From NCBI GenBank assembly GCA_037443265.1, contig JBBIOR010000018.1:1-33836 (forward strand): DNA of 33,836 nt, given 5' to 3'. Position 1 is the stretch's first letter. Each line of letters begins with the position of its first letter. Made by a program: the position numbers. This DNA comes from Candidatus Fraserbacteria bacterium. Lineage in GTDB: Bacteria > Bipolaricaulota > Bipolaricaulia > RBG-16-55-9. This document shows, piece after piece, positions 24,001 through 27,000 of the stretch.

Positions 24001-27000
24001 CCCAGTAGGCAGCAAAGTCCAGGGAACCGTGGTGGCGATTACGGATTTTGGGGCCTTCGTGCGGCTGGAAGAGGACGTCGAAGGGCTGGTACACGTCTCG
24101 GAACTCTCGTGGGGATTTCCTGAGGACCCGCGGGAGGTCGTCCAAGAAGGCGATGTGGTCGAGGTGGTTGTGCTTGACGTCGACGAGCAGGGCCGGCGCA
24201 TCAGCTTGAGCATGCGCCGCGCTCAACCCGACCCCTGGGAACACATTGAAAAGAAGTATCCCGAGGGGGCCGTGGTCATAGGCAAAGTGACAAAGCTGGT
24301 GGACTTCGGAGCCTTTGTCCAGCTGCAGGAAGGGGTCGAGGCACTCTTGCATATCTCGGAGATGAGCTGGGAGCGGGTCAATCATCCCAGCGAGATCCTC
24401 AAAGAGGGGGACGAGATCACAGTGAAAGTGATCAAGTCGGACGGCGCTCGGCGCAAGATCCGGCTCTCGCTCCGAGAGATGCAGCAAGACCCTTGGCATC
24501 GCTTCGTGGAGGACTACCCCCTGGGCACGGTCGTCCACGGCACGATCACGGAACTCAAGGACTTTGGAGCCTTCTGCAAGATTACCGATGAAGTCGAGGG
24601 GCTGATCCACGTCTCTGAGATCTCAGACGATCGCATTAACAAGCCCTCGGATGCGCTTAAAGTCGGCGATACTGTGAGGGCACGGATCATCGGCATCAAC
24701 GAAGAGAAGCGTCAGGTCCGGCTCTCGTTGCGCAACGTGGACGTACGACCTCAAGAACCCCAATCCAAAGAAGAGGCCAGGCACGAGGCGCTCACCATGA
24801 GGGAGCACCTGCGGGGGAAAGGGCTCGTCTAAGGCCCAAAGCTTTTAGTGACGACCGTGATAGATCATTAAAGATGTCACTAAAAGCTCTGTTGGAGTTC
24901 GTCCTCTTTGCACTGCTGGCCTATCTGATCGGCTCCATTCCGTTCAGCTGGTTCATAGCCCGGCTGGCCCAAGTCGATTTGCGGCGCGTGGGCAGTGGGA
25001 ACATCGGGGCCACGAATGTGGCCCGTTCGGTGGGCCTGCCCTATGGCCTGCTCGCTCTGATCCTCGATGCCGCCAAGGGGAGCGTCCCGGCGTATCTGGC
25101 CCTGAGCTGGTCTGTGCCCATCTGGCTCTCTGGGTTTGCGGTCATCGGGCACAACTGGAGCGCTTTTTTAAAGTTTCAGGGCGGCAAGGGAGTGGCCACC
25201 TCCTTGGGCATTCTGCTGATGCTCTCCCCTCCCGTTCTTGTGCTCACCCTCACGATCTGGGTTCTTGTGGCCGCTACTACTCGCTATGTGTCGCTGGCCT
25301 CGGTCTGGGCACTGCTTCTTTCGCCTCTTCTTCTGCTGCTTTGGGGAGCTCCTCGGGAAGCGATCCTCTTGATGGCCGCGCTAGGAGCTCTAAGCGCCTT
25401 CCAACACCGATCGAATTTCCGGAGATGGCTTGAGGGAAAGGAGCACAAGCTCAGTTGAGCTTCGCTACAATGCGCTCCACGATCTCCTCCGGAGTAAGCG
25501 AGGAAGTATCAATCACAAGATCATAGAAAGATCTATCATGCCAATCCAGCTGATAGATCTCCCGATAGCGCTTCTGCTCGGAGTGCTCCCGTTGCAGCAC
25601 CGCTTGACGCACAGCCTCATAATCACTCGTCTTTTCGCGCTGCATAATCCGTCGGATACGAACCCCAAGCGGCGCCTCGAGGAGGACCTTGAGCGCCTCA
25701 ATATGATTCTTATGGGCGAGATATCCCGTAAGACGGCCTTCGAATACGCCCTCAGGCTTTGTGCGCATCAGCTCTAATATTTGGGCATCGAGATCCTGAT
25801 CGATCTTCCAATGGGTCTCCGCCCTTCTTCCCAGCTCCTCGAGTGAGACTCCGGCTTCACGGCTCATCCGGCGGAAGATCTCGCCTGAGGAGAGGTGATC
25901 CAGCCCCAGCTTTTGGGCTAAGAGCGAGGCTACGGTGCTCTTGCCGCTGCCCGGAGGCCCGCTGATCGTGATCCTCTTCTTCATCACACCCAACTAAAGC
26001 TTTACTCGATGTTTCGGATCTGTTCTCTTAGGCACTCAATATGGTTCTTCATCTCGATGAGCCGCTGGGCGAGCTCGCCGTCGCGGGCCTTGGCGGCCAT
26101 GGTGTTCACCTCGCGGTACATCTCCTGAGCCAGAAAATCGAGCGGTCGACCGGCAGGCTCAGGGCCCTTAAGTGCCTCCTCGGCTGCCCCTAGATGGATC
26201 CTCAAGCGTGCGATCTCTTCAGTGATGTCCGCGCGCTCCGCCCAGAGGGCCACCTCTTGCTCCACCCTCTCGGCGTTGAGCTGGATGTCCGGCTCCAGCG
26301 CGCGAATTCGTTGCTGAAGCCGCTCCCTGTAGAGCCACTTGAGCTGAGTGGCATGAGCTTCCACTTGAGCGAGCGCCTGCTCGAGTGCCCGAAGATGCTG
26401 AGTCAGCTCGGCGGCCAGCGCCTGGCCCTCGCGGCACCGCATCTCCCATGCCGCATCGATGGCCTTCTGAAACGCTTCTTCGAGCACAGGCCATAGGCCC
26501 TCCGGATCCGGAAGGAGCGGCTGGAGCGCGCCTGAAAGCCTCAAGAGATGATCCAGCGAGATGTGCTCATCGAGCCCGAGCTCTTGAGCCAGATGCCGCA
26601 GGGCCTCGTAATGCTGGCGTGCCGTCGCCACGTCGAACGTCAAAGCGGGCCATCCCTCGCGTTGGAGTTGGATGGCTGCCTCTATCCGGCCTCGGCGGAA
26701 GCTCTTGCGGAGCAGTTCCATGGCTCGAAGCTCCAGGGCTTCATAGCCCTCCAGGCCGCGGACTTGGAGATCGAGGTATTTATGATTGAGCGTTTTGATT
26801 TTGACGGAGACGATCCAGCTGTGGCCTTGCGCGGCTCCCTCGCCGTAGCCGGTCATGCTCGTGATCATGTCGGGGAATTATAGATCGTTATGGAGCCAGG
26901 ATCAAAAGAGGAATGAGAAACCGGCGCTATACTCCGGCTGGAGGAATCTCGCGTTCAGGGGCACATTCAATTCCAGTTCGTTAAAGAACTCCAACGAACG

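Follow-up and report, generated by a model that had tools for sequence, protein, structure and literature searches.

Any cell that makes GTP by way of GMP requires a GMP kinase, and the guanylate kinase gene, gmk, is essential in model bacteria. The genome of a Candidatus Fraserbacteria bacterium (G000) has no detectable gmk, which raises the question of which enzyme phosphorylates GMP in this organism. We analyzed a stretch of 33,836 nucleotides of this genome (hereafter the window), in which a gene of the archaeal-type kinase family TIGR02173 occupies the position that gmk holds in relatives. Our preferred reading, to which we give a probability of about 0.7, is that this gene encodes a GMP kinase built on the fold of cytidylate kinase (Cmk), which has displaced gmk in place.

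The kinase gene and its distribution

The kinase gene lies behind yicC and faces plsY (Table 1). Its product is 180 residues long when read from a TTG at 25993, the start from which residues are numbered here, or 177 residues from an ATG at 25984. The TIGR02173 match covers residues 8-177 and positions 3-166 of the 169 in the profile, which places the protein within this family. On the bacterial Cmk model TIGR00017 the protein scored 51.5 bits, below the cut-off of 135.55, and the Gmk family PF00625 was absent among the 20 Pfam families listed for it. The gene is convergent with plsY and overlaps its 3' end by 8 bases, and the remA-like (DUF370) gene that stands at the yicC junction in two Gmk-bearing relatives (G008 and G103) is missing from the junction in G000. 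A PF00625 profile search of G000, which is 88% complete, gave 0 matches to Gmk; tblastn with the Gmk proteins of six relatives and a profile built from them recovered P-loop fragments only. Bacterial cmk is retained 3.9 kb from the kinase gene.

Table 1. Features of the gmk slot and of the retained cmk gene, in window coordinates
Feature	Position	Strand	Evidence and role
Kinase gene, proposed GMP kinase	25451-25993	-	TIGR02173, 152.9 bits (cut-off 102.1); also PF13189
yicC (YicC/YloC endoribonuclease)	26002-26868	-	TIGR00255, 201 bits (cut-off 167.5); conserved upstream marker of the gmk slot
Gap from the yicC stop codon to the first kinase start codon	25994-26001	-	8 bases
plsY	24874-25458	+	TIGR00023, 157 bits; downstream marker of the slot
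Bacterial cmk, retained	20972-21589	+	TIGR00017, 156 bits (cut-off 135.55)

TIGR02173 exceeded its cut-off in five of the nine family genomes (G000 and G004-G007), which are incomplete assemblies (80-94% complete) from three genera. The same five genomes were the only ones to pass among 184 genomes of the phylum, in each of which at most 18 candidates were scored. Gmk (PF00625) was present in the remaining four family genomes and in 168 genomes of the phylum, so that the 184 genomes comprise 168 with Gmk only, five with TIGR02173 only, none with both and 11 with neither. The 11 other Gmk-negative genomes (61-91% complete) all lack yicC as well, suggesting that their locus is unassembled. Every locus seen carries either gmk or the TIGR02173 kinase gene, and no genome carries both.

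The slot itself is conserved. yicC adjoins gmk in all 12 loci fetched from relatives and in 29 of 30 further loci, the single miss being at a contig edge. The order yicC-gmk facing plsY was found in G002, G003, G008 and G103, and the order yicC-kinase facing plsY in G000, G006 and G007; G004 and G005 have yicC-kinase with other neighbors. The kinase gene starts 0-28 bases past yicC, and the remA-like gene is gone from the kinase loci. In G008 and G103 this gene sits between yicC and gmk, the same placement as in the annotated order of Bacillus velezensis (yicC-remA-gmk-rpoZ-coaBC).

A preliminary description of this locus had stated that the genome lacks gmk, that a TIGR02173 kinase stands at the gmk position, that cmk is kept about 4 kb away, and that the nine family genomes divide into four with Gmk and five with TIGR02173 without overlap. 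These observations were all reproduced, and the mutual exclusion now extends to the 184 genomes. The TIGR02173 signal and the lack of Gmk that it had noted in four archaeal controls were found again, and 10 bacterial controls showed the opposite pattern. The archaeal controls also lacked bacterial Cmk.

Occupation of the slot in separate lineages

Phylogenetic analysis was carried out on RpoB (15 rows, with G099 left out for a wrong-frame row). The Gmk-bearing G008 was sister to G004 plus G005 (support 100/100), and the Gmk-bearing G003 grouped with G000, G006 and G007 (88/97). A clade of the five kinase genomes was rejected on RpoB (p-AU 1.9e-11) and also on YicC (p-AU 3.4e-4). The five genomes are therefore not a clade, which rules out the single replacement event assumed in the preliminary description. 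Their kinases, which are 54-83% identical, grouped together as one clade in a tree of 63 rows (support 95/94), in which no archaeal donor could be named. Either gmk was replaced at least twice, or an ancestor carried both genes and these were reciprocally lost; the Gmk tree lacked the resolution to separate the two histories. Both imply that the kinase and Gmk are interchangeable in function.

A metagenome scan yielded at least 68 TIGR02173 loci in at least 601 stretches, at least 20 of them strong. Two loci, L067 and L070, had the order yicC-TIGR02173-relA/spoT, with all genes above their cut-offs (TIGR02173 146 and 148 bits), and were the sole loci with yicC among L059-L134; the 48 weak loci were searched by tblastn for yicC and gmk only. 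The other 18 strong loci had mostly archaeal neighbors, as judged by eye, with Cbf5 confirmed at one. The named relatives of the L067 protein came from a Ca. Binatus sp. (82% identity) and a Ca. Binatia bacterium (79%), with a single one from a Ca. Eisenbacteria bacterium (78%). The host lineage of both loci is probably Binatia. Kinases of this type are 43-49% identical to those of the five genomes and formed a clade of their own (100/100), and a tree uniting the two sets of bacterial kinases was not rejected (p-AU 0.32). The YicC proteins of L067 and L070 did not group with those of the five genomes (p-AU 1.3e-5), indicating that the insertions at the slot were separate. Because a shared origin of the kinase clades was not rejected, this independence covers the insertions and does not extend to the acquisitions of the gene. 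The YicC tree ruled out that yicC and the kinase gene had passed together as a cassette from one of these bacterial lineages to the other.

A similar arrangement is probable in spirochaetes. From size and position, we take BB_0818 of Borrelia burgdorferi to be YicC and BB_0819 to be a TIGR02173 kinase. Leptospira and Brachyspira have gmk, and Treponema is not known to carry it. In the gene table of B. burgdorferi, BB_0818 (288 residues, hypothetical) is followed by BB_0819 (cytidylate kinase, 180 residues), which overlaps it by 4 bases, and then by rpoZ (BB_0820); a separate cmk (BB_0128, 221 residues) is listed, and the table holds no "guanylate" entry (PMC9524633). By our hand count of the matrix in PMC6249222, 68 of 69 archaea and two of 89 bacteria carry COG1102, against 0 of 20 eukaryotes; the two bacteria are Treponema azotonutricium and Borrelia afzelii, and neither Leptospira nor Brachyspira is among them. 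The gene gmk was flagged as being without literature support in three Borrelia (PMC10370097).

Shared slot and flanks, complementary occurrence and recurrence in separate lineages together point to displacement of gmk in place. We propose that an archaeal-type TIGR02173 gene took the position behind yicC with the loss of gmk and remA, and that this swap may have happened at least twice in the family of the window, unless coexistence was followed by differential loss, again in the Binatia-like lineage, and probably in Borrelia and Treponema. Not all bacterial members sit at gmk, since a Parabacteroides plasmid carries a fusion protein with a TIGR02173 domain (107.9 bits) in an accessory cluster outside the slot, with D65, D69 and L88 kept. 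The plasmid collection contained seven distant kinase matches, and none of its 42 YicC matches was from a spirochaete. No TIGR02173 kinase was matched in phages.

Nucleotide kinases of the genome and the predicted base pocket

GMP synthase (GuaA) was present in all five kinase genomes, and PPK2 in none of them. As nucleotide kinases G000 has Adk, Tmk and Cmk together with a PyrH-like protein. The remaining kinase candidates were labeled by eye as an aspartokinase, a carbamate kinase and a shikimate kinase, the last of these an extra P-loop protein near rpoB. No PPK2, AK6-like or AdkB-like substitute for a GMP kinase was found in G000. With Adk, PyrH, Tmk and Cmk present and PPK2 absent, the TIGR02173 kinase is the only spare nucleoside monophosphate (NMP) kinase of G000: GMP is the sole NMP without a kinase, and the TIGR02173 gene is the sole kinase without a job.

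Cmk was found in three of the five kinase genomes and in one of the four Gmk genomes of the family. None was seen in G004 and G005, and the Gmk-bearing G001-G003 have neither Cmk nor TIGR02173. In G002 and G003 cmk has been deleted at an otherwise intact site, so the kinase is not explained as a stand-in for Cmk; loss of Cmk does not track TIGR02173, and a replacement of Cmk by the kinase gene was ruled out. The Cmk of the window keeps the equivalents of R110, D132 and S36 (as Thr) of the bacterial enzyme. It has Phe in the R188 column, as do five of six Cmk sequences of the family, including those of the Gmk-bearing G008 and G103, which leaves the activity of the family's Cmk less than certain. 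Bacterial cmk is essential in some species (PMC3603445), and both kinases, Gmk and Cmk, are listed with those enriched in essential genes (PMC3125301).

A model of the TIGR02173 kinase was predicted from a 30-sequence alignment (pLDDT 94.9). Its nearest fold match was 3hdt (Z 19.3, rmsd 2.6, 162 aligned residues), and bacterial Cmk structures matched with Z 16-18 and rmsd 2.4-2.8 over 154-169 residues. The nearest annotated enzymes by predicted fold were thus CMP kinases; no Gmk structure was seen among the best 50 fold matches listed, and no solved structure of a close relative was found.

Residues of bacterial Cmk were mapped onto the kinase through the Cmk of the window. In bacterial Cmk, R41 and R131 bind phosphates and R110, D132 and S36 bind cytosine, and the R110A, R131A and R188A variants of one such enzyme are inactive (PMC3603445). 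The phosphate and ribose contacts R41, R131, R181, D185 and R188 correspond to R41, R87, R135, E139 and R142 of the kinase, and all of the family-invariant residues (G37, R41, D65, D69, R87, R135, E139, R142 and Y143) are present in it. The cytosine readers R110 and D132 are not retained. All three MAFFT modes and the displayed hmmsearch alignments agree in placing D65 in the R110 column and L88 in the D132 column, and D69 aligns with a hydrophobic position of Cmk. The D132 column is unambiguous (EGR-L in the kinase versus EGR-D in Cmk). The R110 column is disputed by hhalign, which placed D65 in another register; that run used a 6-sequence profile and its register breaks the helix ahead of the EGR strand, and hence it was set aside, though it still counts as a dissenting alignment.

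These substitutions are conserved across the TIGR02173 family. Among 266 distinct sequences, 122 of which are close Binatia-like copies, R41, D65, R135 and R142 were each found in 266 and D69 in 265; Ser36 occurred in 27, and position 88 was never Asp. In 142 further representatives (149 minus seven longer than 260 residues), D65 was found in 141 and D69 in 139, and position 88 was always L, I, M or V. Judged from sequence, the pocket would have exchanged a donor to cytosine N3 for an acceptor and lost the acceptor for the cytosine amino group, a change that would fit guanine, or uracil, which is served by PyrH; Asp at position 65 would suit uracil N3-H as well.

In the mechanism that we propose, the enzyme would convert ATP and GMP to ADP and GDP, and probably act on dGMP as well. 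The P-loop (G12-T20) would bind ATP, and R41, R87, R135, E139 and R142 would hold the phosphate and ribose of the NMP in the manner of Cmk. The invariant D65, together with D69 one turn on, would stand in place of R110 of Cmk and act as the hydrogen-bond acceptor for N1-H and N2-H2 of guanine, and L88 would take the place of D132, the acceptor for the cytosine amino group.

Substrate assignment, alternatives and known relatives

The preliminary description had predicted that the kinase phosphorylates GMP. This prediction has gained support from the swap in the Binatia-like lineage, the gene order in Borrelia, the kinase inventory of G000 and the pocket substitutions; we infer the substrate from the position of the gene, its mutual exclusion with Gmk and the pocket residues. 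Against it stand the NCBIfam name of TIGR02173, (d)CMP kinase, the resemblance of the predicted fold to CMP kinases, and the hhalign register. A search of the open-access literature, as distinct from subscription journals, returned no paper that assigns GMP to the TIGR02173 family or assays it. Two papers, PMC2876114 and PMC3261824 (Brown 2011), do not address the archaeal GMP kinase step.

With less confidence than for the window enzyme, we lean toward a broader reading, in which TIGR02173/COG1102 as a whole carries the wrong name. The family would be the guanylate kinase of Archaea and a second class of GMP kinase, which arose from the Cmk fold by way of a charge-reversed base reader and was repeatedly swapped into the bacterial gmk slot, in the family of the window, in the Binatia-like lineage and in Borrelia and Treponema. 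In a sample of 71 genomes from one archaeal phylum, 70 passed the TIGR02173 cut-off and four had two copies. As a reciprocal comparison, archaea that had gained Gmk were sought: among 351 genomes of that phylum, two had Gmk-like matches, which were weak (44 and 52 bits) and sat beside a dCTP-deaminase-like gene in an accessory cassette, and these two genomes keep TIGR02173. The family gene is listed among the essential genes of both Sulfolobus islandicus and Methanococcus maripaludis, and the "proven function" entry is blank for two Sulfolobus orthologues (PMC6249222). The archaeal gene lies within a ribosomal operon, and its essentiality may therefore be polar.

A broad NMP kinase, acting about equally on GMP and CMP and perhaps UMP and doing the work of both Cmk and Gmk in archaea, is in our judgment unlikely. 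The equivalents of R110 and D132 are both replaced, and an invariant acid has taken the place of R110, a pattern that speaks for a new and specific reader. Cmk is also retained alongside the kinase in three of the five genomes and in Borrelia. Such an enzyme would nevertheless be consistent with the Cmk-like fold, with the R142 kept throughout the 266 sequences, with the variable S36 column, which suggests a looser pocket, and with the archaeal controls, in which a single enzyme could cover the missing Gmk and Cmk. The preliminary description had raised breadth as a possibility because two kinase genomes show no Cmk; that absence was confirmed for G004 and G005, but it says little, since the three Gmk-bearing relatives G001-G003 lost Cmk without any replacement.

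An ordinary CMP kinase, as annotated, would leave GMP to a promiscuous Adk or another enzyme (AK6, AdkA or AdkB in archaea) and would make the position of the gene a coincidence or an insertion hot spot. We regard this as highly improbable, since the coincidence would be needed in at least two branches of the family, in the Binatia-like lineage and probably in spirochaetes, every genome with a yicC locus has exactly one of the two genes, and the cytosine readers are lost. AK6-like, AdkB-like and PPK2 proteins are also absent from G000. AdkB is said to accept dGMP, according to work by Grochowski in 2012. The CMP reading has in its favor the curated family name and several published statements: the archaeal enzyme for GMP to GDP was called unidentified in 2014, with AK6 proposed (PMC4177761); a metabolic model of Borrelia fills the GMP kinase gap with Adk, "added for presumed nonspecific enzyme" (PMC10734484); and some Patescibacteria are reported to be without Gmk (PMC9166423; bioRxiv 10.64898/2026.06.21.733656).

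An artefact, in which gmk is missing through incomplete assembly or an archaeal-type gene was joined chimerically, would suit the incompleteness of all five assemblies and the lower GC3 of the kinase gene (0.65 versus 0.69-0.78 in nine neighbor genes), yet it has almost no chance of being correct, given five concordant genomes in three genera, kinases that form one clade, and an unbroken slot in the assemblies of G000, G006 and G007, each with the identical convergent plsY overlap. These intact loci rule out incomplete assembly as the cause of the absent gmk.

What is new in the GMP kinase reading is a role for a family that is itself already known, with the candidate narrowed to one soluble protein of 180 residues and to two residues within it. 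If the reading is correct, a gene in nearly all archaea would be re-annotated and the metabolic models of archaea and spirochaetes would change; Archaea would be without a dedicated CMP kinase, and the route of CMP recycling there would be reopened. The GMP kinase of Borrelia and Treponema would differ from the human Gmk-type enzyme, making it a possible narrow drug target.

Among known systems, the closest is the archaeal-type (d)CMP kinase family itself (TIGR02173 cyt_kin_arch, COG1102, arCOG01037), whose cut-off the window kinase passes and with which it has all invariant residues in common; Methanomassiliicoccales proteins are 49-50% identical to it. The archaeal gene lies in the secY-adk-ribosomal-Cbf5 region and its annotated substrate is CMP, whereas the window kinase is found in a bacterium behind yicC, with GMP as the proposed substrate. 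With Gmk (TIGR03263/PF00625, COG0194) it shares the genomic slot, the putative reaction and the P-loop NMP-kinase superfamily; unlike Gmk, it has no PF00625 match, and by sequence as well as by model it falls within the Cmk branch. Bacterial Cmk (TIGR00017/PF02224) has the same fold, and the equivalents of R41, R131, R181, D185 (as Glu) and R188 are kept, but the insert of about 30 residues is absent from the kinase, R110 is replaced by Asp and D132 by Leu, and S36 is not conserved. Two putative kinases of the PF13189 family from gut Firmicutes (PDB 3hdt and 3fdi) are 24% and 17% identical to it, and 3hdt is its best structural match. BB_0819 of B. burgdorferi, compared by size and position, resembles the window kinase in its 180 residues and in its place behind a 288-residue gene and before rpoZ.

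TIGR02173-like and Gmk-like proteins in other loci

The TIGR02173 kinase family of the two metagenome loci, which are probably from Binatia, was large in metagenomes (882 matches), and rpoZ was absent between the kinase and spoT in both loci. Five proteins (P0247, P0248, P0253, P0257 and P0297; 355-379 aa) consisted of two TIGR02173-like kinase domains in tandem, and the substrate might not be the same for both domains. The fusion gene of the Parabacteroides plasmid was adjoined by a radical SAM gene and a GDP-fucose synthase gene. Having GDP-sugar genes close by would be consistent with a G-nucleotide role of this fusion. 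The Gmk-like protein of the archaeal cassettes scored 70 bits on TIGR03263, which is below the cut-off.

Coordinates of the features
Feature	Location	Source	Remark
TIGR02173 kinase	L067:3995-4525	Binatia-like locus	spoT directly after
TIGR02173 kinase	L070:1725-2261	Binatia-like locus	spoT directly after
430-aa ORF, divergent Gmk-like protein and dCTP-deaminase-like gene	L133:197-2692	archaeal genome	cassette
Cassette	L134:751-3248	second archaeal genome	near-identical to L133
TIGR02173 domain fused to C-terminal part	L172:2498-3415	Parabacteroides plasmid
Secreted-looking proteins	27150-33789 (-)	window	run upstream of yicC
Former cmk site	L045:11441-13313	G003	adjoins plsC; cmk gone
Former cmk site	L044:7890-12000	G002	adjoins plsC; cmk gone
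cmk	20972-21589	window

Secreted-looking proteins upstream of yicC

Two long ORFs were interspersed among the secreted-looking proteins of the window, and right-handed beta-helix domains were present in the two proteins tested. Homologues were found near the same locus in three relatives (G007, G013 and G014).

Bacterial Cmk and its loss in relatives

A Cmk match was absent from eight of the 35 order genomes searched, and the genomes without a match included G001, G004, G005 and G080. In the alignment, the Cmk proteins of the window's family, including that of the window, and of a further relative (G103) contained a short deletion and a Phe in the column of R188, the catalytically needed Arg of a bacterial Cmk (R188A is inactive; PMC3603445), with an Arg two residues past this column.
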